Part shown: one piece after another, positions 50,548-64,000 of the stretch
Layout of the letters: the number at the start of each line of letters is the position of its first letter
Numbering within the stretch: position 1 is the stretch's first letter
Assembly: GCA_963702475.1 (NCBI GenBank)
Contig: CAVPCT010000005.1
Span: 736,001-800,000 of the forward strand
Direction of reading: 5' to 3'
Source of the DNA: an uncultured Thermoleophilia bacterium
Lineage (GTDB): Bacteria > Actinomycetota > Thermoleophilia > UBA2241
DNA length: 64,000 bases
Made by a program: the position numbers and the translations under genes
The notes under the pieces: generated by a model
Told to the model about the DNA's origin: nothing
The model's input: the letters and a program-made list of their open reading frames with translations, nothing else
Database searches by the model: none

Positions 50548-53433
50548 GTGAGCCGCCCCTTGTCAGGAGAACCTCACATCCTCGGCCCCGTGGCGGCGAA
50601 GCTCTCCAGGCCGGTCACGGCAGGAGCGGTCCTTCGCCCCGAGACCGTCGCCGCCTTCGATGCAGGTCTTCGCCGCCGTCTCACGGTCGTCTGCGCACCC
50701 GCCGGCTACGGCAAGTCCACGGCCGCGGCGGCCGCTACCGCCGAGCTCGGCGTCGACTGCGTGTGGTACAAGCTGGACCTGCTCGACCGCGATCCCGTCC
50801 TGTTCCTGGCATCGCTCGCCGAGGCGCTTCGTGACCGCGCCCCCCAGTTCGGCGAGCCGATCCGTGAACGACTCAGATCGTCGGGGAGTGAGCCGTTCCC
50901 GCTCTCCCACCTGCAGGCCATGTTCGTCCGTGAGTGCGAGACCCACCTCGGCAATGCTGCCGTCCACCTGGCGCTCGACGACTTCCACGAGGCCGCGGAG
51001 TCCAGCGCCACCACGTCGGCGCTCGACTACCTCCTCGCCAATCTCCCGCGAGGCTTTCGCTTCGTGGTGATCGGCAGATACGACCCGTCCCTGCGACTCG
51101 CCAAGCTCAGGCTGGAGGACCAGGTGGGCCTGGTCGACGCCGGCGTCCTGCGCTTCAGTGTCACGCAGGCCGCCGCCGTCCTCGAGGCACGCACGGGGGT
51201 GCGACCCGAGCCCCACCACGTGCGACAGCTGGTCGACATCACAGAAGGATGGCCGGCGAGCATCGTGTTCGCCGGCCTTGTCCTCGACTGGCAGGCACCC
51301 GACCGAGTCGACGCCGCCCTCTCGGACCCGCGCCTCAAACAGGATATCTACTCGTACCTCGCGGAACAGGTGTACGCCAGCGAGGATCGCGCGACCAGGG
51401 CCTTCCTCAAGCGGACCTGTTGCCTGGACAACCTCACCGTGGACCTCGCCGGGCGCGTGGGACGCACGCGGTTGGCCGCCAAGAGACTCGCGCATCTCGC
51501 GGCCAAGAGTGTCTTCACGTTCGCGACCGCGGACGAGGGGGCGTACCGGTACCATCGCCTGTTCCGGGACTTCCTCAGGCAGAAGTTCGTCCAGGACGAG
51601 GGCGAGGGGGCGTTTCGCAGGTTGCACGTCGAGACCGCGGAGGTACTGGAGGACGCCGGGGAGACGGAGCTGGCGATCGAGCTCTTCCTCGATGCCAACG
51701 AGCCGCGAGAGGCGCTGCGCATCGTCGCCGCCGTGGGTGAGGCCATGCTCGCCGACGTGCCGTCGGACCGGCTCGCATCCTGGCTGGAGCGACTGCCCCC
51801 AGACCTCAGGTCCGGTGAGCCGTGGCCGCTGCTCCTGGAGGCACAACTCCGCTGCCGCGAAGCCGACTACGGGCGCGCGCTGAACGGCATCGGCGAGGCC
51901 GAGCGCCTCTTTCGCGCGACCGCCGACGACGCCGGATTGTACGAGTGTCTGTCGATGCGCGAAAGCGCGCTGTTCTGGCGCGGCGACACCGCCGCGGCCA
52001 TGGACGCATGCCGCGAGGCGCTGGAACGCGCCGGCACCGACGCCCAGAGGATCCACTCGCTCCTCAGCCTCGGCTCCGCCGCCGTCGAGGCACGAGACTG
52101 GGCGCTCGCGGACGACTCGTTCGCCCGCGCGGACGACCTCGCCCTGACGACCGATCCGCGCGAACGCCCGCGCGCACAGGCTCTCCGATCACACGCGCTG
52201 TACTACCAAGGGTTCGTTCGGGAGGCACGCGAAGCAATGCCCGACACGCGCGACCTAATAGTGTCACCGTCACTCCATGTTGCCGCGACCAACACCTTGG
52301 GCATGATCCGCACCGCCCTCGGCGACTACCAAGGGGCCCTGGCCTGTCTGGGCGAGGCCCTCGAGGCCGCACGGCGGTTCGGGTTCGCCGCCCCGCGCGA
52401 CATGATTCTCGACAACATCGGGCTCGCCACGGGCTCCTGCGGCGACCTCCTCGCCGGCCTCGAGCACGTCCGCGCCGCGGCTCGTGGTGACGCCTACGAG
52501 CAGCAGCCCGGCCTGCGAGCCTGGGCGCAGTGCCACGAGGCCACCCTGCTTCGGAGGGCCGGTCATGTGGAGGAGGCGCGACTGGCGGCGGAGCAGGTCG
52601 TGATCCAGGCGCGCGCGCTGGACGACACCTACGCGCGCCTCAACTTCGAGGCCAACCTGCTGTTCGCACGTGGTCTGCTCGGCGACGACACGAGAGACGG
52701 CATGGACCAAGTGGCAAGGCGTGCCGATGGGCTGCAGCTTGCCTTCGTGGCGCTCAAGGCGCGCCTCTTCGCGGCCGTCGTCGCCGACACGAGGGGGCAC
52801 GCGAAAGACGCGGAGGCGCGCCTGGCGCACTGTCTGCCGCGGCAGCTTGAACTGGGCCACCTGCATGTGGTGACCCAGGAGCTGTGCCCGCGGCCGCACG
52901 CCGCTCTGAGGGCGCTGTCGGTGCTGGAACGTGCCGGGCTTCATCGGCGACTCATGGACGCGCTCGCGCTCCACCCCGGGTTCGCGGAACTCGCCGACAC
53001 CCTCTGCGCCGGACGCGCCGACCTCGCCGCGCTCGCCGTGGACGCGGCGCGGCGCTCCGCCCCCGATGCCGTGCTCACGCGCGTGCTGCGCGCTGCGGGG
53101 CGTTGCGGTCGGGACAACGTGGCCGCGGCGGTGGAGCGGGCGCGCACGGCTCGTCCCACGGCCACCGGGCGCGCCGCCGCCATGCTGGAGCGGCTCACGC
53201 CCCGCGAACGCGAGGTCCTGTCGCTCATGGCGGACGGCCTGCGCAACCGCGACATCGTCGCGCGTCTGTTCCTCTCCGAGTCGACGGTGAAGACTCACGT
53301 CTACCACATCTTCACCAAGCTCGAGGTGAAGACGCGGGTCGAGGCGGTCCTTCTCCATCACGATGCGCTCCCGTCACCCGGAGCCGCGGCGCATCTCAAC
53401 CCCCGCATACCGGGAGATACGACCGCGGTATGA
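50548..53433 (+). CDS. MalT-like STAND ATPase / TPR / LuxR-HTH transcriptional regulator
   Basis: APAGYGKST, LALDDFH, TEGWPA, YRYHRLFRDFL, TPR-like helices, C-terminal LTPREREVL...TVKTHVYHIFTKL; start approximate. Confidence 0.9.
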   Translation: MSRPLSGEPHILGPVAAKLSRPVTAGAVLRPETVAAFDAGLRRRLTVVCAPAGYGKSTAAAAATAELGVDCVWYKLDLLDRDPVLFLASLAEALRDRAPQFGEPIRERLRSSGSEPFPLSHLQAMFVRECETHLGNAAVHLALDDFHEAAESSATTSALDYLLANLPRGFRFVVIGRYDPSLRLAKLRLEDQVGLVDAGVLRFSVTQAAAVLEARTGVRPEPHHVRQLVDITEGWPASIVFAGLVLDWQAPDRVDAALSDPRLKQDIYSYLAEQVYASEDRATRAFLKRTCCLDNLTVDLAGRVGRTRLAAKRLAHLAAKSVFTFATADEGAYRYHRLFRDFLRQKFVQDEGEGAFRRLHVETAEVLEDAGETELAIELFLDANEPREALRIVAAVGEAMLADVPSDRLASWLERLPPDLRSGEPWPLLLEAQLRCREADYGRALNGIGEAERLFRATADDAGLYECLSMRESALFWRGDTAAAMDACREALERAGTDAQRIHSLLSLGSAAVEARDWALADDSFARADDLALTTDPRERPRAQALRSHALYYQGFVREAREAMPDTRDLIVSPSLHVAATNTLGMIRTALGDYQGALACLGEALEAARRFGFAAPRDMILDNIGLATGSCGDLLAGLEHVRAAARGDAYEQQPGLRAWAQCHEATLLRRAGHVEEARLAAEQVVIQARALDDTYARLNFEANLLFARGLLGDDTRDGMDQVARRADGLQLAFVALKARLFAAVVADTRGHAKDAEARLAHCLPRQLELGHLHVVTQELCPRPHAALRALSVLERAGLHRRLMDALALHPGFAELADTLCAGRADLAALAVDAARRSAPDAVLTRVLRAAGRCGRDNVAAAVERARTARPTATGRAAAMLERLTPREREVLSLMADGLRNRDIVARLFLSESTVKTHVYHIFTKLEVKTRVEAVLLHHDALPSPGAAAHLNPRIPGDTTAV

Positions 53434-53500
53434 TTCGCTTCCCGCTCCCGCTGGCTACGATGCGTTCCCCATCAACCCAGCCTCGGCAACAGGAGCGAAG

Positions 53501-54520
53501 ATGGAAGCATCCACATCCGTCGTCTACATCGAGTCGAACCGCATGAGCCAGCGCAAGAAGACGGTGATCGACCTCCTGCGTGCCGGCGAGGACTTCGTGT
53601 CGGGCGAGGCCATGAGCGCGCAGCTCGGCATCTCGCGGAACGCCGTGCACAAGCACATCAAGTCGCTGCGCCGGCGGGGCTACCGCATCCTGGGCGTCTC
53701 CCGTCGCGGTTATCGTCTGGAGGAGGAGCCGAGCCGTCTCTCCATGGCGCACGTCACCGACCGCACGGCCGGCAGCGCGTTCGCCCGCTCCTACCGCTAC
53801 TACGACGAGATCGAGTCGACCAACGTGGAGGCCAAGTCGCTCGCCAACAGCGGCGCCCCCGAAGGCACCGTGGTGATCGCCGAGTCGCAGACTGCCGGAC
53901 GCGGCCGGCTCGGGCGCCGCTGGACGTCCCCGGCGGGCAAGGGACTGCTCTTCTCCGCACTGCTGCGTCCGGCCTTCCCGATGGGCGACGCCCACATGCT
54001 CACCCTGGTGGCGGCGTGCGCCGCCGCCGAGGCCATCGAGTCGCTCGCCGACGTGGCGGTGGCCATCAAGTGGCCCAACGACCTCTTCATCGGCGACCGC
54101 AAGGTGGGCGGCATCCTGCTCGAGGTGGCCGGCGAGCAGGATGAGGTCGACTGGATCGTCGTGGGCATGGGCGTCAACGTGAACACCGAGTACTCTGAGT
54201 TGCCCGTCGCGCTGCGCAGAACAGCGACGTCCCTGAAGATGACCACGGGCGCCCCGGTCGACAGGAGTGAGCTCCTCGCGCGGCTGCTGCTCGCACTCGA
54301 CGGCCACTACCGGCGTGCGCTGTCCGACGGCTTCGAGCGCGCCTTGAGTGAGTTCAGGAGCCGGGACTACCTCGTGCGCCGCACGGTGAGCGTCCAGACT
54401 CGCGAGGGCGCGGTGGTGGGCGAAGCCGTCGGTATCGACGAGCGCGGCGCCCTGCTCGTGCAGGTGCCTCACCGCTCGGTGCGTTCGTTCCACTCCGGCG
54501 ACGTCACCCTCGCCACCTGA
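53501..54520 (+). CDS. birA: Bifunctional biotin-protein ligase / biotin repressor (class II)
   Basis: N-terminal wHTH (SGEAMSAQLGISRNAVHKHI), QTAGRGRLGR, IKWPND, KVGGIL; AGGAG RBS. Confidence 0.95.
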   Translation: MEASTSVVYIESNRMSQRKKTVIDLLRAGEDFVSGEAMSAQLGISRNAVHKHIKSLRRRGYRILGVSRRGYRLEEEPSRLSMAHVTDRTAGSAFARSYRYYDEIESTNVEAKSLANSGAPEGTVVIAESQTAGRGRLGRRWTSPAGKGLLFSALLRPAFPMGDAHMLTLVAACAAAEAIESLADVAVAIKWPNDLFIGDRKVGGILLEVAGEQDEVDWIVVGMGVNVNTEYSELPVALRRTATSLKMTTGAPVDRSELLARLLLALDGHYRRALSDGFERALSEFRSRDYLVRRTVSVQTREGAVVGEAVGIDERGALLVQVPHRSVRSFHSGDVTLAT

Positions 54521-54526
54521 GCCGCA

Positions 54527-54569
54527 CGCGCCCCGGGAGGTCGTCACCTTGACAACCTCCCGGGGCGCG
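54527..54569 (+). terminator. 20-bp inverted repeat after birA
   Basis: CGCGCCCCGGGAGGTCGTCA-cct-TGACAACCTCCCGGGGCGCG, one mismatch. Confidence 0.6.
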
Positions 54570-54610
54570 CCCTACATTGTCACCTCTGTTCTCCGGAGCA
54601 AGGTTGACGA
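54549..54610 (+). promoter_or_regulatory. bioY promoter and putative BirA operator
   Basis: TTGACA-N18-TACATT followed by imperfect dyad TTGTCACCT-N15-AGGTTGACGA resembling the BirA box. Confidence 0.55.
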
Positions 54611-54611
54611 T

Positions 54612-55163
54612 TTGCAGCAGCTTCAGGCGCGCGAGGTCGCCTACGCCGCCCTCTTCGCGGCCCTCATCGCGGCAGGCGCGTTCGTGGCCGTCCCGCTCGG
54701 CCCCGTGCCCTTCACCCTGCAGGTACTCGTGGTGCTGCTCGCGGGCCTCGTGCTGGGCCCACGCGGCGGTACGCTCGCTGTCGCTGCCTACCTCGTCCTG
54801 GGGCTCGTCGCTCCGGTCTATGCCGGCGGCACGTCGGGCGTCGGCGTCCTCGTCGGACCGACGGGCGGGTATCTGTGGGGCTTCGTTCTCGGGGCCGCTG
54901 CCGCGGGTCTCGTGGCGCGGCGCACCGGACCGAGGCTCCTGGGTCTGACGGCCGCGGCCCTCGCGGGACTGGTGCCGATCTACGCGCTGGGTACGACGTG
55001 GCTGGCGTTCCAGCTCCACCTGGACGCCGGGGCGGCCATAGCCGCCGGCGCGCTGCCGTTTCTCACCGCCGACCTGGTGAAGGCAGGAGCCGCCGCCCTG
55101 GCGGCGAGAAGCCTGCTCAGCCTGCCGCTGGGTCTTCCCGAGCCTCAGACGAGAGGCCGCTGA
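54612..55163 (+). CDS. bioY: Biotin ECF S-component
   Basis: PVPFTLQ, GPTGGYLWGF, IYALG, LPF..DLVK; TTG 54612 with GGAG upstream. Confidence 0.92.
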   Translation: MQQLQAREVAYAALFAALIAAGAFVAVPLGPVPFTLQVLVVLLAGLVLGPRGGTLAVAAYLVLGLVAPVYAGGTSGVGVLVGPTGGYLWGFVLGAAAAGLVARRTGPRLLGLTAAALAGLVPIYALGTTWLAFQLHLDAGAAIAAGALPFLTADLVKAGAAALAARSLLSLPLGLPEPQTRGR

Positions 55164-56550
55164 CGTCGGCCAGCGCCCGGCCGCGGAGGCGGAGGTTGAT
55201 GCGCCCGCGCTCGTACTCGACCATGAAGTCGGTCGAGCTGCCGTCCCTGTACGCGAGGTCCTTGTCGCGCAGGACCCGGGCCAGCGCCTCCACGTAGTCC
55301 TTCTCGAGGGTCTTGCCCGAAGCCCCGCGCAGCTCCTTGAGCGCCTCGAACGAGCTGCGCGCCGAGTGGTACGGCCGGTCCGACGTCATCGCGTGGTACG
55401 AGTCGGCGACCGCGAGGATCTTGCTCAGCTCGGGGATGTCGTCGCCCTTCATGCCGGACGGGTAGCCGCTGCCGTCCAGCCGCTCGTGATGGTACCGGAC
55501 GATGTCGGCCACTCCCTGGTACGCGACCAGGTGCGAGAGCACCTCGGCGCCCTTCTCCGGATGCTCTCTGACGCAGGACCAGTCCTGCTCGTCGAGGACG
55601 GTCGTCTTGCGGAGCACGGCGTCGGGTACTCCGACCTTCCCCAGGTCGTGGAGGAGGCCCGCGAGGTGCAGCGCCTCGGCCTGCTCCTCCGGCAGGCTCA
55701 GCACCATGGCCATGTCGCGGCAGTACATGGCGACCGCGGCAGAGTGCTGGGCAGTGTACTCGTCCTTGCTGTCGAGCAACACCACCATGGCCGCCGCCAG
55801 GCCGATGTTCATCTCGAGATACTGGTCGCTGAGCTCCTTCTGCCGGGTCAGATGCTGCTTCTCGCGGACCAGCAGCTTGAACATGTACTGGCTCGAGAAC
55901 AACGGGATGAACAGGAGCGCCACAGCGACGATGCCAGCCTCGGCGTACAAGGCGGCAATGGCCAAGCCGAGCAGAAGAAGCACGCCCAGGGAGCGCATGA
56001 AGGGCGGCATCTCCTCACGCCAGAAGGAACCAAGGTGTCTCTGGTACTTGACCCGCATGCCCATGCTGACCAGCGCGAGATTGGCCGCTTCAAAAGTAAC
56101 CGCAGCTGCAGCGCCGGCCGCGAGCAGCGAAACCGAGAGGGAGTCCGGAGGCACGTCGAGCGCTCGTGACACCGCCTCGAAGACCATGGTGGCCAGAAAC
56201 ACCGAGAGCACCGTGTTGGCCACGTTGAAGACGACGACGACGCGGGACTCCTCGCGCCAGGCGCCCCAGAGCCCGAGCACGAGCGCCACGGCGAGCGCCG
56301 GCACGCGGCCGGTGTACATGATCGCGAGAAGGAGCGGCAGGTTGCCGGCGGCGAGCGTGACGCGTTCCGACACCTCGACCGACATCTCGTCGGCGATCAC
56401 CGCGAGGACGGCGAACACCACTGCGTCGCGCAGCACGGTCGTCGTCAGGACAACGGAGCCCGGGTACAGCAGGGCGTAGCCCACGGCAAGCGAGCCCGCT
56501 GCGGCCAGCCCGACCGCGAACGCGCGGAAGTTGCGCTCAGCTATCGACAC
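55117..56550 (-). CDS. Polytopic-membrane HD-GYP domain protein (putative cyclic-dinucleotide phosphodiesterase/receptor)
   Basis: About 7 hydrophobic segments, then KDEYTAQHS, LHDLGK, HPEKG, HHERLDGSGYP, VADSYHAMTSDRPY; GAGGTG RBS. Confidence 0.93.
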   Translation of the reverse strand: MSIAERNFRAFAVGLAAAGSLAVGYALLYPGSVVLTTTVLRDAVVFAVLAVIADEMSVEVSERVTLAAGNLPLLLAIMYTGRVPALAVALVLGLWGAWREESRVVVVFNVANTVLSVFLATMVFEAVSRALDVPPDSLSVSLLAAGAAAAVTFEAANLALVSMGMRVKYQRHLGSFWREEMPPFMRSLGVLLLLGLAIAALYAEAGIVAVALLFIPLFSSQYMFKLLVREKQHLTRQKELSDQYLEMNIGLAAAMVVLLDSKDEYTAQHSAAVAMYCRDMAMVLSLPEEQAEALHLAGLLHDLGKVGVPDAVLRKTTVLDEQDWSCVREHPEKGAEVLSHLVAYQGVADIVRYHHERLDGSGYPSGMKGDDIPELSKILAVADSYHAMTSDRPYHSARSSFEALKELRGASGKTLEKDYVEALARVLRDKDLAYRDGSSTDFMVEYERGRINLRLRGRALADVSGLSSEAREDPAAG

Positions 56551-56611
56551 TCCACCTCACCCGGGTCCTCGGTGTGGCGTCTATCGGCAGCACCTGGGGC
56601 GGGCTTGAGGG

Positions 56612-56692
56612 TCAGTGGATCTTGCTGCTGCCGCCACCGGCCACGAGCGCAAGGAGGAGGGAGGCGAGGGTGCGTTCTATCTTCTTGCTCAT
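56612..56692 (-). CDS. Small peptide B, 26 aa: MSKKIERTLASLLLALVAGGGSSKIH
   Basis: ATG 56692 16 nt after the peptide A stop, G-rich RBS-like GGGGCGGGG; basic N-region, hydrophobic core, GGG, polar tail. Confidence 0.7.
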   Translation of the reverse strand: MSKKIERTLASLLLALVAGGGSSKIH

Positions 56693-56708
56693 GATGACCC
56701 CGCCCCAG

Positions 56709-56792
56709 TCAGTGAAGCTTGGCGTAGTCGGCCGTGATGTGGAGCTTGGCGTAGTCGGCCGTGATGTGGAGCTTGGCGTACTCAACGAACAT
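56709..56792 (-). CDS. Small repeat peptide A, 27 aa: MFVEYAKLHITADYAKLHITADYAKLH
   Basis: Perfect AGGAGG RBS 5 nt before ATG; 27-nt repeats in frame; GC3-rich codons; stop immediately after the third YAKLH. Confidence 0.8.
   Translation of the reverse strand: MFVEYAKLHITADYAKLHITADYAKLH
56712..56780. repeat. 27-bp tandem repeat, ~2.5 copies
   Basis: AGCTTGGCGTAGTCGGCCGTGATGTGG x2 + AGCTTGGCGTA. Confidence 0.95.
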
Positions 56793-57102
56793 GGAATCCT
56801 CCTAAAGTCCCGGCGACAACTGCCGATGAATTGTGGTTGACGACTGCCTTGGCACTCTCGCAGCGACGCTCGCGGAAGCCCACCCCTCAGGCTTTGGACA
56901 TCCCGCGCAAAGCGGCGCGTGAACGATTGCCAGAATGGACAACACATTTTGTGGCGCCCGCGGCAATCGTCATCCCAAGCTTGCCAGCACCCTCGCGCAC
57001 GCACGCGCGAAGGCGAGTCGTGCCGAAGCCTGCGCGAAGGAGCGGTGACCGGCCCAGCGAAGCTCTCCGGGTCACCGCGGTCGTCCGGCGCCGGGAGGCA
57101 TC

Positions 57103-58344
57103 ATCGAGGCCAACAGCATCAGGCGGGTCGACAGGAGGACCAGCGCCCGCCGCGCGTCGCTCGCGCGCAACGGCAACTTCGCGCTCCTGTGGGCGGGCCA
57201 GTTCGTGTCGCAGCTGGGCGACAGGCTGGCGATGGTCGCACTGCCGTGGCTGGTGTACCGCGCCACCGGGTCGGCCCTGAGCACGGGCGTCGCCTTCGCC
57301 CTCTACACGTTGCCCTACGTGCTGTTCGGAGCCTTCGCCGGCGTGCTCATCGACCGGTTCGACAAGCGCCTGGTCATGATCGCCTCCGACCTTGTGCGGG
57401 TCGCGCTCGTGATGCTCGTGCCGCTGGCGGCGCAACGGTCTCTCTGGGCCGTGTTTGTGTTGAGCTTCCTCATCGCGAGCGCCGCCGTGTTCTTCGACCC
57501 CTGCAAGCTCGCGCTCCTGCCGGATCTGGTCCCGCGTGAGAAGCTGCTGCGCGCCAACTCACTGCTGGCCACCGGCGAGAACCTCACCGAGATCCTGGGG
57601 TACACCGCCGCGGGGTTCGCGCTCGCGTACATCTCGACCACCAACGTCTTCCGCATCGACGCGGCCACCTTCGCGGTGTCGGCCGCGTCGCTGGCGCTGA
57701 TCCGCTACAGGGCCCCGGTGCGGGCGGCGACGGAGAAGGCCGCCCGCTCGTTCTGGCGCGACCTGCGCGAGGGCTTCGCCTTTCTCCGGCACCACCGCGG
57801 CCTGCTGACGAACACCATCATGGTCGTAGGCTGCGTGGCGGGGCTCGGGGCGTCCTACCCGCTCGCCTTCCTGCTCGCGGTGGACGTGTTCGACGCGGGC
57901 ACGGCGGCATTCGGCGTGTTCGAAGGGATGGTCGGCCTCGGCTACCTCGTGGGCTCGCTCGCGCTGGCGGCCCTGGCCCAGCGTGTGCCGCAGGGCCGCG
58001 CCATGGTCGCGGGGCTGATGCTCATGGGCGCGAGCCTGTCTCTGGTGGCCGCGGCCGGGGGCGTGTGGATCGCCTGCATCCCGTTCGCGGTCCTCGGCGT
58101 GGCCAACGCGGCGGCGCTCATCGCGATCGACACCTACCTGCAGAACGTCGTGCCCGAACACCTTCGCGGCAGGGTGTTCGGCACGCGGTTCACGCTCACG
58201 CAGGGCGTCTACGCGCTGGCGGTGCTCGCCGGCGGCGCGCTCGCCACCATCGTGGACATCCGCGTGCTCTTCATCGTCTGCGGCCTGCTGATCGCCGTGC
58301 CGGCGCTGGCGGGCCTGTTCGTGCGCGAGATCCGCGACGCGTGA
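57103..58344 (+). CDS. MFS transporter (DHA3/macrolide-efflux-like), start uncertain
   Basis: RNGNFALLWAGQFVSQLGD, GVLIDRFDKR, DLREG, HLRGRVFG; the first canonical start (57205) lies inside TM1. Confidence 0.85.
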   Translation: MEANSIRRVDRRTSARRASLARNGNFALLWAGQFVSQLGDRLAMVALPWLVYRATGSALSTGVAFALYTLPYVLFGAFAGVLIDRFDKRLVMIASDLVRVALVMLVPLAAQRSLWAVFVLSFLIASAAVFFDPCKLALLPDLVPREKLLRANSLLATGENLTEILGYTAAGFALAYISTTNVFRIDAATFAVSAASLALIRYRAPVRAATEKAARSFWRDLREGFAFLRHHRGLLTNTIMVVGCVAGLGASYPLAFLLAVDVFDAGTAAFGVFEGMVGLGYLVGSLALAALAQRVPQGRAMVAGLMLMGASLSLVAAAGGVWIACIPFAVLGVANAAALIAIDTYLQNVVPEHLRGRVFGTRFTLTQGVYALAVLAGGALATIVDIRVLFIVCGLLIAVPALAGLFVREIRDA

Positions 58345-59814: not shown

Positions 59815-60897
59815 TCAGGAGCGGCGCACCTCGCGGTAGAGGGTGTCCCTCTGCACGGGAACGCGTCCGGCGGCGCGGATGAGCCCCACCATCTGCGGCA
59901 CGTCGCACTGGTTGCGTACGCCGGCGGCCGCCACCACGTTCTCTTCGATCATGGTCGAACCCATGTCGTTGGCCCCGAAGGCGAGTGCGACCTGCCCCAT
60001 GCGCAAGCCCTGCGTGACCCAGGACGCCTGGATGTTGGGCACGTTGTCCAGGTAGATGCGGCTGACGGCCAGCAGGCGCAGGTAGTCGACGCCGGTGGCG
60101 GGGACGTGGCCGGCCGCAAGCTCCGTGTTGCCGGCCTGGAAGGTCCACGGGATGAACGCCGTGAAGCCGCCGGTCTCGTCCTGGAGCTCACGGATGCGGC
60201 GCAGATGCTCTACGCGTTCGGCGACCGTGTCGAGCGAGCCGAACATCATGGTCGCCGTGGTCTTCATGCCCAGGCCGTGCGCCGTGCGCATCACGTCCAG
60301 CCAGACATCGGTGGGTATCTTGTGCGGGCTGATCTCCAGACGCACGCGGTCGACCAGCACCTCCGCCCCACCGCCGGGCAGGGAGTCGAGGCCGGCGGCC
60401 CGCAGGCGCCGCAGCGTCTCCTCCACGCTGAGGCCGCTGACCTTGGCGATGTGGACGACCTCCGGCGGCGAGAGCGAGTGGATGTGGATGGGATACGCCG
60501 CCTTGATGCCGCTGAAGACACGCTCGAACCAGCAGATGTCCAGGTCGGGGTGCAGGCCGCCCTGCATCATGATGGCGGTGCCTCCGAGGGCGAGGGTCTC
60601 CTCCACCTTGCGGTGGATCTCGTCCTCGCCGAGCAGATACCCCTGCCCGCTCCCCGGCTTCTTGTAGAAGGCGCAGAAGCGGCAACCGGAGATGCAGTAG
60701 TCGGTGTAGTTGATGTTGCGGTCGACGATGAAGGTGACGTCGTCGCCGGGGTGGAGGTGGCGACGGACGGCGTCGGCGCGCGCGCCGACGCCGAGCAGGT
60801 CGCCGGACTCGAGCAGGGCGACCGCTTCGCCGTCGGTGAGGCGGGCCGGCGGCGCCGGGCCGCCGGGCGGCACGGAGACGGTCTCGCGGGCGCTCAT
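59815..60897 (-). CDS. mqnC: Cyclic dehypoxanthine futalosine synthase (radical SAM)
   Basis: FIVDRNINYT, CISGCRFC, MQGGLHP, PGGGAE, FIPWTFQ, NIQASWVTQG, NDMGSTMIEENVV. Confidence 0.92.
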   Translation of the reverse strand: MSARETVSVPPGGPAPPARLTDGEAVALLESGDLLGVGARADAVRRHLHPGDDVTFIVDRNINYTDYCISGCRFCAFYKKPGSGQGYLLGEDEIHRKVEETLALGGTAIMMQGGLHPDLDICWFERVFSGIKAAYPIHIHSLSPPEVVHIAKVSGLSVEETLRRLRAAGLDSLPGGGAEVLVDRVRLEISPHKIPTDVWLDVMRTAHGLGMKTTATMMFGSLDTVAERVEHLRRIRELQDETGGFTAFIPWTFQAGNTELAAGHVPATGVDYLRLLAVSRIYLDNVPNIQASWVTQGLRMGQVALAFGANDMGSTMIEENVVAAAGVRNQCDVPQMVGLIRAAGRVPVQRDTLYREVRRS

Positions 60898-61397
60898 GGG
60901 AGCCCCTCGCCCGCGAGATCGAGCGCGAAGTGGACGAGGTACTCGCCGTAGGGACCAGGCTCGCGGTGGACGGAGACCCCCTCGATCGTCTCCTCGCCCG
61001 GGACCACGGCGAAGCCCAGACCGGTGTGGAAGGCGATCGAGACCGTGTTGACCGGCGCCGTGACGGCGCGGACCACGGAGCGGCCGCGCGCCCGCGCACC
61101 TGCGCAGAAGCGCCGGTAGAGGTCGCGGCCGAGACCCACGCGCCGCCACGCCGGGTGCACCCCGCAGAAGTGCACGTAGGCCTCCTCCGGATGGTCGCCA
61201 CAATCGAAGCCCACGAGAAAGCCGACCAGCCGATCCTCGTGCTCGACCACCAGCGAGGCCGAGCGGAAGTGCTCGAAGAAGACCCGCGGGACCATGGCGC
61301 GCAGGTCCCGGCCGCCCCACCACTCGGGCATCACGGCCATGACCCTGGCGTGATCGTCCGGAATGGGGCGGCGGAAGACGAGCGAGGAGCAGGACAC
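60894..61397 (-). CDS. GNAT-family acetyltransferase
   Basis: EWWGGR, YVHFCGVHPAWRRVGLG, VTAPVNTVSIAFHTGLGF. Confidence 0.85.
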   Translation of the reverse strand: MSCSSLVFRRPIPDDHARVMAVMPEWWGGRDLRAMVPRVFFEHFRSASLVVEHEDRLVGFLVGFDCGDHPEEAYVHFCGVHPAWRRVGLGRDLYRRFCAGARARGRSVVRAVTAPVNTVSIAFHTGLGFAVVPGEETIEGVSVHREPGPYGEYLVHFALDLAGEGLP

Positions 61398-61404
61398 GGC
61401 GCGG

Positions 61405-62415
61405 TCACCCGCCGGCGGGGGTCGCCGGTGCCGTGACCGGGCCGCCGCCGGTCGCCGGCGCAACGGCCGGGCCGCCGCCGGGACCGCCGGAGCCGGGTGC
61501 GCGGAACATCGCAGCGTCGAGGTCGGGCGCCGCGACGAGCTCGCCCGCAGCCACGGCGCGCCGGTAGAACTCGTCCAGCCCGGCGCGGTACTCCCGCGCG
61601 AACTCGAAGCGGAGCTTGCGGAAGTACTCGAGCAGGTAGCGCCGGCTGAAGTCGTACCGCTGCGCCGCCGCGCCCGCCGTCTCCTCCGGACGCGCGGCGC
61701 AGCGGTCGCGCGAGGCCAGGAGCGCCGCGCCGACCGCCGCGGCCGCCTGCGGCCGCGCGGCGGCGAACTCGCGACGCACGGCGCACACGGCGAAGACCAT
61801 GGGCATCCCGGTGACGGTACGCCACTCCTCGCTGAGGTCGTAGTGAAACGGGTAGACCTCGGCGCGCAGCACGTACAGCGCCTCGTCGCCGATGAGCAGC
61901 AGCCCGTCGGCGTCGGCGAGCACCTCCGCCAGCGACCCACGCCGCGGGACGAAGTCGGGCTCCATGCCCCACTCCCTGCAGAGCACCTTGAGGAGGCAGA
62001 TGGACGTAGCGCTCTTCTCGGTGAGCGCGATGCGGCGCACCTCCCGCAACGGCACACGCGTGAACAGCTGCACCGAGTCGACCGCGCCGAAAGCGCTGAT
62101 GGACACGTCCGGCAGAAGCGCCAGCTGCGGCGCGGCCCGCGCGAACGCGATCGACGAGGGCAGGGCGACGTCGATGAGGTCGTCCACCAGCATCTCGTTG
62201 AGTTGCGATGGGTACCCCTCGACGATCGTCGCGGACAAGCCGCGCCTCGCGAGCTCCTCCTCGAAGTGGTGGTAGAGCGGAAAACAGTTCACGAACTCGA
62301 TGCGGCCGACGCGAACGGGTTGAACCTCACCCTCACGTCGAAGGAGAGACTCCCGATGGGCGCCGGCCTCCGGTCCCGACGGACCGGCGCCCTCAGGCGG
62401 AGGCGCCGGCGTCAT
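61405..62415 (-). CDS. mqnA: Chorismate dehydratase (start uncertain)
   Basis: RVGRIEFVNCFP, GAVDSV, SATS, LLIGDEAL, DLSEEW...GMPMVFAV. Confidence 0.9.
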   Translation of the reverse strand: MTPAPPPEGAGPSGPEAGAHRESLLRREGEVQPVRVGRIEFVNCFPLYHHFEEELARRGLSATIVEGYPSQLNEMLVDDLIDVALPSSIAFARAAPQLALLPDVSISAFGAVDSVQLFTRVPLREVRRIALTEKSATSICLLKVLCREWGMEPDFVPRRGSLAEVLADADGLLLIGDEALYVLRAEVYPFHYDLSEEWRTVTGMPMVFAVCAVRREFAAARPQAAAAVGAALLASRDRCAARPEETAGAAAQRYDFSRRYLLEYFRKLRFEFAREYRAGLDEFYRRAVAAGELVAAPDLDAAMFRAPGSGGPGGGPAVAPATGGGPVTAPATPAGG

Positions 62416-63526
62416 CGTAGCGACGCACCACGTTGTAGAGCGTGTCGCGCTCGACGGGGACGCGGCCGGCGGCGCGGATCACGCGGACGAGCTCAGCCTT
62501 GCTGAGCTCCTGCCCGGTGTCGACGCCGGCCGCGTGGCTGATCTTCTCCTCCACCACCGTGCCGTCCAGGTCGTTGACCCCGAACACGAGCGAGACCTGC
62601 GCCAGCTTGAGCCCGACGTTGATCCAGAACGCCTTGATGTGGCGGAAGTTGTCCAGCACGAGACGGCCGACTGCCAGCATGCGCAGGTCGTCGAACCCGG
62701 TGGGCCCGGGCAGGTCGCTGAGGCCGGTGTGCGCGGGCTGGAACGACAGCGGGATGAAGGCGTTGAACCCGCCGGTGTCGTCCTGGAGCTCGCGCAGGCG
62801 GACCATGTGGTCGGCGAGCTCTTCCGGCCGTTCCACGTGTCCGTAGAGCATGGTGGCGTTGGACTTGAGGCCGGCCTCGTGTGCGGCCCGCATGACGTCG
62901 AGCCATTCCTGCCCGGAGATCTTGCGCTCGCAGATGAGGTCGCGCACGCGCCCGCTGAACACCTCGGCGCCGCCGCCCGGCAGCGAGCCGAGGCCCGCCT
63001 GCTTGAGCTTGGTGAGCACCTCCTGCACGGGCTTGCCGCTGATGCGCGCGAAGTGGGCGATCTCGCTGGCCGTGAACGCCTGGATGTGCACATCGGGGTC
63101 GAGCTCACGGAGCGCGTGCATCATGTCCAGGTAGTACTGGAACGGCAGGTCGGGGTGCTCCCCGCCGACGATGTGGATCTCGCTGACGCCGCCCTCGGCA
63201 AGGGTCTCGCGGGCCTTCTCCACGACCTCGTCCACGCTCAGGGTGAAGGCGTCCGCATCCCCTTCGTCGTGACTGAACGCGCAGAACAGACAGCGGTTGC
63301 GGCAGACGTTGGTGTGGTTGATGTGGCGGTTGCGGATGAAGAAGACCTCGTCGCCCACGTCGCGGGCCCGGACGAAGTCGGCCATGGCGCCCAGCGCCAG
63401 CAGGTCGTTGGTCTCCAGCAGCGCCCTCGCCTGGGACGCGTCGAGACGGTCACCGGCCTCGACGGTGTTCCAGACACCTTCCAGGCCCGCACGCGCGGTG
63501 AGGGCAGCGATCTCGGTGGGATGCAC
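62393..63526 (-). CDS. mqnE: Aminodeoxyfutalosine synthase (radical SAM)
   Basis: NRHINHTNVCRNRCLFC, EIHIVGG, SNATMLYGHVE, HIKAFW, DGTVVEEKISHAAG. Confidence 0.92.
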   Translation of the reverse strand: MHPTEIAALTARAGLEGVWNTVEAGDRLDASQARALLETNDLLALGAMADFVRARDVGDEVFFIRNRHINHTNVCRNRCLFCAFSHDEGDADAFTLSVDEVVEKARETLAEGGVSEIHIVGGEHPDLPFQYYLDMMHALRELDPDVHIQAFTASEIAHFARISGKPVQEVLTKLKQAGLGSLPGGGAEVFSGRVRDLICERKISGQEWLDVMRAAHEAGLKSNATMLYGHVERPEELADHMVRLRELQDDTGGFNAFIPLSFQPAHTGLSDLPGPTGFDDLRMLAVGRLVLDNFRHIKAFWINVGLKLAQVSLVFGVNDLDGTVVEEKISHAAGVDTGQELSKAELVRVIRAAGRVPVERDTLYNVVRRYDDAGASA

Positions 63527-63545
63527 GGGGCAGACTCCAGACGTA

Positions 63546-64000
63546 TCAGCTGTAGCGGTCGACGACGTGCGCCGCCACCTGTTCGAGCAGGTCGCGCTCG
63601 ACCGCACCGGGACAGCCGGCGAGCACACTGCGAGCCTGCTCAATGTACCCCAAAGCGGCCGCGCGGGCACGCTGAAGGGCGCCGCTGCCGGCGATGACGC
63701 TGAGGGCTTCGTCCACCTCGTGTGCCGTGAGGTCCCGGCGTGCCAGGAGCGCCCTCAGTCCCGGTTCCGCCTCGAGCGCGTAGATCATCGGCAGCGTCAC
63801 CGTACCGTCGCGGACGTCGGTGCCCGGGCGCTTGCCGGTCGAGTGCTCGTCGCCGCTGCAGTCGAGGATGTCGTCGAACACCTGGAAGGCGAGGCCGATG
63901 AGGCGGCCGTACTCCGCAAGGGACGCGGCCGCCGGAGCCGCTTCGCCCAACAGCGCCCCAAGGCGGCACGCCGCAGCGAAGAGATCGGCGGTCTTGCGCT
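63546..64000 (-). CDS. Polyprenyl diphosphate synthase (5' partial)
   Basis: KTADLF, GLAFQVFDDILD, GKRPGTDVRDG.TLP. Confidence 0.9.
   Translation of the reverse strand, partial: RKTADLFAAACRLGALLGEAAPAAASLAEYGRLIGLAFQVFDDILDCSGDEHSTGKRPGTDVRDGTVTLPMIYALEAEPGLRALLARRDLTAHEVDEALSVIAGSGALQRARAAALGYIEQARSVLAGCPGAVERDLLEQVAAHVVDRYS

Follow-up and report, generated by a model that had tools for sequence, protein, structure and literature searches.

What can a gene contribute whose product is little more than three copies of the same five residues? The question is raised by pep1, a 27-codon open reading frame (ORF) in a 64,000-nucleotide stretch of DNA (hereafter the window) from an uncultured Thermoleophilia bacterium of the GTDB lineage UBA2241 (genome G000; GenBank assembly GCA_963702475.1, contig CAVPCT010000005.1, positions 736,001 to 800,000). 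On the same strand pep1 is followed by pep2, which encodes a 26-residue microprotein, and then by the gene of a predicted cyclic di-GMP (c-di-GMP) phosphodiesterase with a MASE9-like membrane domain. Across relatives we find the two small ORFs conserved, with a common C-terminal tail, in synteny with the sensor gene, and with a pep1 unit that has been amplified recurrently. Tentatively, we read pep1 as a helix-less, tail-only paralogue of pep2 that supplies copies of the tail and thereby modulates the MASE9-like HD-GYP sensor.

A mini-gene conserved in its C-terminal motif

pep1 lies at positions 56709–56792 of the minus strand, with its start ATG at 56792–56790 and its stop TGA at 56711–56709. 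By the ORF list and the sequence it reads MFVE-(YAKLH-ITAD)2-YAKLH (MFVEYAKLHITADYAKLHITADYAKLH), which contains three [KR]-hydrophobic-His units, the last of them C-terminal. A Shine-Dalgarno (SD) sequence, AGGAGG, is read from the sequence at 56798–56803 (minus strand), 5 nt before the ATG. A preliminary description of this DNA, whose interval of 56709–56803 includes the SD besides the ORF, had drawn attention to an in-frame 27-bp repeat of three YAKLH units. The repeat is confirmed, on the minus strand and led by a ribosome-binding site (RBS); Tandem Repeats Finder places it at 56712–56780 (period 27 bp, 2.6 copies, 97% matches, score 131). The sequence also bears out that the units are preceded by acidic residues (E, D and D), that the final His abuts the stop, that the sole difference among the YAKLH codons is synonymous (Leu CTC/CTC/CTT), and that there is no signal peptide; pep1 has neither a hydrophobic N-terminus nor any hydrophobic segment.

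Within the 4.3-Mb genome, a degenerate pattern for YAKLH-coding DNA occurs three times, always inside pep1, and it does not occur in the reversed control. In the six frames of the window, [KR][MILV]H fits 2 of 1756 stop-preceded tripeptides, which we take to be the ends of pep1 and pep2. Part of the stretch is contained in 20 of the 21 public runs listed, four of which were examined more closely. Contigs from an independent run (X2) are identical to 56276–56780, with 0 differences, and none of the runs compared has an indel in the stretch; short contigs break within the array, and the copy number of three is not thereby confirmed. Neither pep1 nor pep2 belongs to a Pfam or NCBIfam family, and a search of Rfam over 55800–57600 returned nothing relevant. 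Seven pep1 variants, that of the window and those of six relatives, are absent from a collection of 15 billion proteins, which illustrates how gene callers miss functional ORFs of 8–33 codons.

We compared 63 loci from 62 genomes; 62 of the loci have the upstream DNA needed to read pep1. A counterpart of the 361-nt leader was found in 17 of the genus's 24 other genomes, and in none of 16 from other families. At the position of pep1, 55 of the 62 loci have a mini-ORF that is led by a GGAGG- or GGGGG-type SD and ends in [KR]-[MILV]-H-stop. Start, SD and terminal motif are kept across about 10 genera whose HD-GYP proteins are just 60–76% identical; by the preliminary description's own criterion, loss of the frame or RBS in relatives, its reading as an in-frame micro-peptide was therefore not refuted. 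What had been taken for the core, YAKLH, is not what is conserved. The conserved unit is x-x-[KR]-hydrophobic-His at the C-terminus, with Lys or Arg at −3 in all intact relatives, and the remaining residues vary freely; the Tyr (at −5) and Ala of YAKLH are limited to this genome and its nearest relative, G020. Constraint on pep1 acts on the peptide: across genera, Lys may be encoded by AAG or AAA, the hydrophobic residue by ATG, ATT, ATC, CTN or GTN and His by CAC or CAT, and any of the stops TGA, TAG and TAA may follow.

The number of units per ORF ranges from one to four and the length of pep1 from 8 to 33 residues. One-unit forms such as MRKGAKIH, MIVTMTKLH, MRSPMKMH and MTRSAAKIH were counted in 26 loci (including a disrupted one, L008, counted via a spurious TTG start), and two units share a single ORF in nine (for example MASAPTKLHQPTKLH, MHHSFKIHSFKIH and MRSPVKVHSPVKVH). 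Three units occur in 16 loci, as MRFGGKMH-IKFGGKMH-IRFGGKMH in the main clade of the genus, and four in two loci, for example as MRFCGKMH-(LDTCGKMH)3. pep1 may also be split into two separate mini-ORFs (genomes G067, G079 and G102), with one unit each in two loci and two units each in one locus. Repeats are spaced 15 to 27 nt apart, corresponding to periods of 5–6 residues (SFKIH, SPVKVH, PTKLH), 8 residues (GGKMH-IxF; LDT-xGKMH) and 9 residues (YAKLH-ITAD). Because the periods differ (5, 6, 8 and 9 residues), the unit was amplified in frame several times independently, and pep1 offers a clean natural example of the recurrent independent in-frame amplification of a three-residue motif. The linkers are IKF, IRF, ISF, LDT or none at all (SFKIH-SFKIH, SPVKVH-SPVKVH), and in G020 the first YAKLH is preceded by S, so that the proposed cutting of a polyprotein after D or E does not hold among relatives. 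The bin of one relative, G059, contains two versions of the locus, on contigs C278 (L033) and C191 (L046), which differ in pep1 (MRFSGKMHISQSGKMHVSYSGKMH and MRFGGKMHIKFGGKMHVRFGGKMH) and reflect either a strain mixture or a duplication. On comparative grounds, from which we also infer its translation, pep1 is a genuine, conserved and unannotated peptide gene.

A microprotein with the same tail beside a c-di-GMP sensor gene

pep2 (56612–56692, minus strand) starts 17 bases past the pep1 stop. It encodes the 26-residue microprotein MSKKIERTLASLLLALVAGGGSSKIH, in which a basic N-terminus leads into a single hydrophobic helix, followed by a GGG segment and the tail S-K-I-H; it thus ends in the same K-hydrophobic-H motif as pep1. 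A profile built on pep2 finds a counterpart in 58 of the family's 79 other genomes. None of the class's 321 other genomes has a credible match; three matches there are marginal (E values of 6e-4 to 7e-3), and all lie inside frames of 230–439 codons. The length of pep2 is nearly constant, at 25–26 residues; its composition is helix-like and its layout is of the signal-like n/h/c type. Entropy by codon position is 0.65/0.36/1.19, with synonymous sites varying freely, and a strain variant in one run has two differences in pep2, both synonymous (codon positions worked out by hand). The 15-billion protein collection does contain, unnamed, the exact pep2 (4 contigs) and the pep2 of the main clade (65 contigs). 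Judged by these comparisons, pep2 is a protein-coding gene for a single-helix microprotein.

The tails of the two genes agree from genome to genome. In 56 of the 56 loci that can be read in both, pep2 and pep1 are concordant at the hydrophobic position of the tail, with Met in both (30 loci) or in neither (26 loci); the Met state is found in two genera, namely in the main clade of one and in three genomes of the other. Both peptides end in R-L-H in G082. The exception is G010, which was found separately, where pep2 ends in RMH and pep1 in KLH. Within single genomes (e.g. G021, G006 and G072) the His codon differs between pep1 and pep2; gene conversion is therefore not the cause of the shared tail, and the difference also argues against an RNA motif. 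The likeness may extend beyond the last three residues. In the main clade, the pep1 unit GGC GGC AAG ATG CAC resembles the pep2 3′ end, GGC GGC GGC AGC AAG ATG CAC TGA, and in G088 the two peptides share G-N-x-K-I-H. Because of the resemblance to the pep2 3′ end, pep1 looks like a copy of the microprotein gene minus its helix.

The gene downstream, at 55117–56550 (minus strand), starts 61 bases beyond pep2 and encodes a protein of 477 aa, in which a multi-pass membrane domain, MASE9-like by a Pfam match just under the cut-off, is followed by an HD-GYP (HD_5) c-di-GMP phosphodiesterase domain with the motif HHERLDGSGYP. The HD_5 match has an E value of 7e-39, and H354, E356, D359, G360, G362, Y363 and P364 are invariant in 35 orthologues. 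With its HD_5/HD domain and HHExxDGxGYP motif the protein has what defines an HD-GYP phosphodiesterase, and catalysis is predicted. Among the orthologues, the MASE9 match reaches E ≤ 0.01 in 29 of 35, with 1.7e-6 as the best value. Downstream of pep2, the HD-GYP gene is present in 61 of 63 loci (downstream DNA is missing from the remaining two), and the three genomes of the family without an HD-GYP orthologue (G061, G019 and G054) are also without pep2. Prediction of a complex between pep2 and residues 1–245 of the sensor gave scores of 0.03 and 0.06 (mark 0.32), which count neither way, pep2 being shorter than the 30 residues for which the method was calibrated.

pep2 is bracketed by a perfect 10-nt inverted repeat, CTGGGGCGGG / CCCGCCCCAG, at 56699–56708 and 56594–56603 (minus strand), which extends over the RBS region of pep2. 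No helix other than that of the repeat is retained in the centroid fold, and the repeat may control pep2 translation. The main clade has, by eye, CTGAGG / CCTCAAG where the repeat sits.

Microproteins of this build are not confined to the family. In a sister family, the orthologous sensor gene (41–46% identity) is preceded in six of six loci (L124–L129) by an ORF of 25–31 residues of the pep2 build with an RWxW tail, e.g. MKVKIFGFITALATLLAASGGRWTW; neither an MFS match (major facilitator superfamily) nor a tail-only mini-ORF was found at these loci. ORFs of this build are SD-led and about 25 residues long; a basic N-terminus precedes a single hydrophobic helix, then [AG]G[AG], and the last residues of the tail are [KR]-W/H/F. 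Across the Actinomycetota, 28 MASE9 loci (within L146–L175 without L171) had at least 186 nt of upstream DNA (none came from four genomes flagged as unpublished), and such an ORF lies just upstream of the MASE9 gene in 18 of them and elsewhere in the locus in four more, with tails of the types TVRW, QTRW, AARW, GARH, HWKW and SKWA. The same filter picked out an unrelated ORF in just 4 of 396 control windows. Four loci (L154, L156, L163 and L165) have two or three full microprotein copies in tandem, and tail-only mini-ORFs were found in 0 of 35 loci outside the family. pep2 thus appears to belong to an undescribed group of microproteins of about 25 residues encoded upstream of MASE9-type sensor genes in Actinomycetota. 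No description of peptides of the pep1 or pep2 type was found in the literature on MASE9, on small membrane proteins of HD-GYP enzymes or on microproteins of c-di-GMP phosphodiesterases. MASE9 has been predicted to bind a ligand within the membrane, and the available part of the source names none (Galperin & Chou, bioRxiv 10.1101/2021.11.05.467447); in that part, the terms ‘peptide’, ‘small protein’ and ‘upstream’ each have 0 occurrences, the supplementary figures, which might bear on topology, lying outside the search.

The genome has a second MASE9 gene, outside the window (about 254000–259200 of G000:C5), that encodes MASE9 with a SpoIIE/PP2C phosphatase. It is directly preceded by the gene of an S8 peptidase with a signal peptide, whose C-terminus is a tandem W-T-K-[FY]-[KRA] array with a 15-nt period and 10.4 copies (L202:517-4128, L176:1251-2963). 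The WTK[FY] array is kept in 24 of 25 loci of the family, with about 1 to at least 14 copies, and a radical SAM/SPASM gene divergent from the peptidase is present in 9 of the 10 loci examined. The module looks like a candidate modified-peptide or sensor system. Both MASE9 sensors of the family are thus preceded by genes with tandem short Lys-containing repeats, which, as a single further case, makes a peptide ligand a little more likely.

How copies of the tail might act on the sensor

In the reading that we tentatively prefer, pep2 would sit in the membrane beside the MASE9 domain, with its N-terminus inside, by the positive-inside rule, and with the K-hydrophobic-H tail lying at the outer interface. 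Soluble copies of that tail, free or multivalent, would come from pep1 and would compete with the tethered one, or mimic it, wherever it is read; the dose would be set by how many units pep1 has, and the outcome would be modulated hydrolysis of c-di-GMP. To reach an outer site pep1 would have to be exported, for which the divergent MFS_3 pump (DHA3/EntS/Mef-like by Pfam and NCBIfam; 57205–58344, plus strand) is the obvious, unproven candidate. The multivalent ligand or antagonist of the preliminary description comes close to this proposal, which adds the two elements that it had missed, pep2 and the HD-GYP sensor. In a bolder version, MASE9 sensors would be receptors for gene-encoded short basic-aromatic/His motifs, which this family would present in two forms, tethered as the outward tail of pep2 and free as leaderless multi-copy pep1, exported by the MFS protein. 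As an autoinducer-like agonist or antagonist, pep1 would then link c-di-GMP turnover to peptide signalling between cells or at the envelope, and the genome's other MASE9 module would be a processed, possibly cross-linked version of the same arrangement; as a whole this version is improbable. Either way, the locus offers synthesizable candidate inputs to MASE9-type c-di-GMP enzymes, a 26-residue microprotein and a mini-gene of one to four tail copies, so that inputs to these enzymes become directly testable with peptides, two-hybrid and phosphodiesterase assays.

Small membrane proteins are known to modulate membrane sensors, as MgrB does with PhoQ. pep2 resembles this type in that a small ORF beside the gene of a membrane sensor encodes one hydrophobic helix, an association kept across families; it differs in having no sequence relation to known members, in matching nothing in Pfam or NCBIfam and in having as its putative partner a MASE9-type c-di-GMP enzyme instead of a histidine kinase. 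We know of no case among small membrane proteins in which a second gene encodes solely repeated copies of the tail. pep1 lacks the defining features of small membrane-protein modulators, of Phr pre-peptides and of minimal genes for peptides that are synthesized ribosomally and modified post-translationally (RiPPs) alike. Phr pre-peptides carry repeated autoinducer units, according to the available part of Even-Tov et al. (2016; PMC5199041), and share with pep1 the (near-)identical units of 5–6 residues in one small precursor, a copy number that varies among relatives and an active C-terminal end. In the same account, however, Phr peptides have a Sec signal and cytoplasmic Rap receptors with tetratricopeptide repeats (TPR) and belong to Firmicutes, whereas pep1 has no signal, lies beside an HD-GYP sensor and an MFS gene and occurs in Thermoleophilia. 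No secretion signal was found on pep1 and no TPR receptor of the RRNPP type (Rap/NprR/PlcR) adjoins it, its neighbours being the MASE9-like HD-GYP and MFS_3 genes.

Several observations weigh against the proposed role. pep1 has no signal peptide while the positive-inside rule puts the pep2 tail outside, so that the model requires an export step. The adjacency of the MFS gene is weak evidence for such a step and may be mere synteny: the genes for a LuxR-type ATPase, BirA, BioY and HD-GYP, and on the other side MFS, MFS and Mqn, are collinear in 10 of 10 examined loci of several genera (BioY, MFS1b or Mqn matches are missing from some of the ten), and because this whole 15-kb region is collinear in the family we downgraded the MFS protein as a dedicated exporter. 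The concordance of the tails rests on few evolutionary events, the genomes being related and not independent. The MASE9 (PF20972) match of the sensor itself, at 22.8 bits, is under the curated cut-off of 24.3. In G007 (L122, G007:C4:204000-207400) two SD-led mini-ORFs, MRQSWKLR and MRKSWKLR, end in K-L-R, and there is no pep2 upstream of an intact HD-GYP orthologue. Transcription is not shown by the metatranscriptome X20, in which coverage is confined to parts of the HD-GYP gene (90–95% likeness in 9 of 10 records), nor by run X16 (labelled ‘RNA?’, possibly DNA), which covers pep2 but also intergenic DNA.

pep1 is, moreover, disrupted in 7 of the 62 loci. In six of these (G020, G017, G011, G013, G009 and G022) some of the nucleotide repeats are 25 or 26 nt apart and pep1 is not intact (in G020, for instance, the second YAKLH is one base out of frame), and the one-unit pep1 of G045 is frameshifted by the insertion of a single base. 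Two further loci, in G001 and G072, carry their middle nucleotide repeat out of frame, with the pep1 ORF and its final unit intact. All seven disrupted loci come from assemblies of at most 30 contigs; disruption was found in 0 of 21 loci from assemblies of at least 100 contigs vs. 7 of 41 others (p = 0.08, not significant alone). Frameshifts in HD-GYP or MFS genes within the same 3 kb affect 5 of 7 disrupted and 10 of 55 intact loci (p = 0.007, Fisher test). Because of the few long contigs and the frameshifted flanks, the disrupted copies are probably indel errors of long-read assemblies; G009, in which pep1 is disrupted though the flanking genes are intact, does not fit this explanation as well.

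These same copies bear on whether the peptide matters at all. If the repeat worked at the nucleotide level, as a DNA or RNA motif bound by protein, the open frame would be incidental, as might be expected from the nine loci (the seven disrupted ones with G001 and G072) that keep some out-of-frame copies of GCAAGATGCACATC, at periods of 23, 25 or 26 nt. Yet the out-of-frame cases cluster where flanking genes are also frameshifted, the spacing varies from 15 to 27 nt, and the bases of the unit change across genera (ACCAAGCTGCAC, ATCAAGGTTCAC, GTCAAGATTCAC) while K-hydrophobic-H and the stop persist. We therefore rejected this explanation, which has next to no probability. Nor is pep1 likely to be a functionless, decaying remnant of a duplicated pep2. 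Tandem full-length microprotein genes, two or three in number, do exist in other lineages, the units do resemble the pep2 3′ end, and the seven disruptions would suit decay, but 55 of 62 loci, from about 10 genera, retain start, SD and terminal motif, the units were re-amplified in frame several times, and all 21 loci from assemblies of at least 100 contigs are intact; we consider decay very improbable. A rather more plausible, though still unlikely, alternative is that pep1, and perhaps pep2, is a leader ORF that acts only in cis, with its translation or termination, for example a stall at K-hydrophobic-H-stop, controlling translation or transcription of the downstream pep2 and HD-GYP genes. 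Attenuator leaders and arrest peptides, such as the his leader and TnaC, are short ORFs upstream of the gene that they regulate, and pep1 resembles them as a short upstream ORF with a repeated or terminal critical motif. Both small ORFs are SD-led, lie directly upstream of a regulatory enzyme gene on the same strand, and end in the same three residues and a stop, as a common termination-linked signal would; invariant nucleotide blocks lie outside them, including the complementary ATCGGCA and TGCCGAT that flank both (see below); and the near-constant 25–26 residues of pep2 would suit a nascent-chain sensor, for which TnaC provides an analogy. Unlike the known cases, however, the locus has no terminator or alternative hairpins, its downstream gene is not biosynthetic, and the unit is a block of 5–9 residues instead of a run of a single codon. 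We disfavour a leader in cis because there are 0 terminator-like sites, shuffled controls fold more stably than the leader does (z = +2.3 for the leader), the long-range helix shows no covarying pair, and internal K-hydrophobic-H units precede sense codons and were amplified with differing periods, which a stop-linked signal does not predict. pep2, in addition, has the composition of a membrane helix, varies freely at synonymous sites, and is found phylum-wide by MASE9 genes with quite different tails.

The remaining alternative overlaps the export variant of our proposal. pep1 would be a leaderless multi-core precursor that is cut into His-ending units, which an enzyme encoded elsewhere might modify, and that leaves the cell through MFS_3; the product could serve as a peptide signal, bind metal as an X-X-His peptide or be a modified RiPP. 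We regard this as quite unlikely. Recurrent in-frame multiplication of a short unit is typical of multi-copy precursors of signals and natural products, and a divergent EntS/Mef-like MFS_3 gene accompanies pep1 in 60 of 63 loci (no upstream DNA is available for the remaining three), while it was not found by the orthologous sensor of the sister family, which likewise lacks pep1. The module of radical SAM/SPASM protein, secreted protease with its WTK[FY]K array and MASE9 elsewhere in the genome could be cited in the same sense. Microcin C is made from a heptapeptide gene, mccA, accompanied by an MFS exporter, MccC, and pep1 is likewise a minimal peptide gene that adjoins an MFS efflux pump; the pep1 locus differs in having neither an MccB-type adenylyltransferase nor a C-terminal Asn, and the nearby genes that were scanned include no antibiotic-type cluster. 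A cyanobactin- or dikaritin-like multi-core RiPP does not fit, since pep1 has no leader or recognition sequence, its linkers are unconserved or absent, and the locus has no protease, maturase or P450; the adjacency of the exporter is possibly plain synteny. A Met/His copper site or one of the amino-terminal Cu(II)- and Ni(II)-binding (ATCUN) type was rejected as not general, since no more than 30 of 56 loci have Met as the hydrophobic residue and G007 ends in Arg. In the biarylitides, as the available part of the source describes them, BytA precursors (MRYYH, MRYLH, MRHAH) pair with the P450 BytO (PMC12002111). Tiny, SD-led, unannotated ORFs of Actinomycetota are common to both, and many one-unit pep1 also start with M-R and end with His (MRKGAKIH, MRFSAKIH-like), but compared with that account pep1 has Lys or Arg, not an aromatic residue, two before the His, is 8–33 residues long instead of 5, and has no P450. 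No aromatic-x-His or aromatic-x-aromatic core was found at the pep1 C-terminus, and the neighbours are HD-GYP, MFS, BioY, BirA and Mqn genes. No P450 (PF00067) was found in the 93.8%-complete genome by a search that was positive in 8 of 14 control genomes. The Tyr/His cross-linked RiPP that the preliminary description had thought conceivable, and the cut after D/E, both fail because Tyr is not conserved, there is no P450 and the acidic linkers are not conserved.

Conserved blocks and flanking housekeeping genes

Outside the ORFs, a 5′ leader block, GTCGTCAACCA..(T/C)ATCGGCA, at 56821–56844 (minus strand), upstream of the pep1 RBS, has invariant columns in 19 aligned leaders; its invariant part reads GTCAACCA..ATCGGCA, and the block is discernible in other genera too. 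A second conserved block, TGCCGATAG, at 56581–56589 (minus strand), lies between pep2 and the HD-GYP start, and its TGCCGAT complements the ATCGGCA of the leader, so that the two small ORFs lie between complementary blocks about 230 nt apart. All 19 sequences (19 of 19) show the blocks paired in RNAalifold; no pair varies, and the helix is neither supported nor refuted. The two blocks could form an RNA helix or be two protein-binding sites.

Farther out, BirA and BioY are encoded at 53363–55163, beyond the HD-GYP gene, and futalosine-pathway menaquinone genes at 59815–63670 (minus strand), with two MqnC/E-type radical SAM genes around VitK2_biosynth; both sets are housekeeping genes, collinear family-wide. 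Being of the MqnC/E type of menaquinone synthesis, these nearby radical SAM genes do not support a cross-linked RiPP. In the divergent promoter region between pep1 and the MFS gene, a block at 56924–56945 (minus strand), GTGTTGTCCATTCTGGCAATCG, forms a near-palindrome, TTG(T)CCA..TGGCAA. It is nearly unchanged in several relatives (e.g. L013 and L016, and partly L002 and L018), and is a possible operator common to the MFS gene and the peptide operon.

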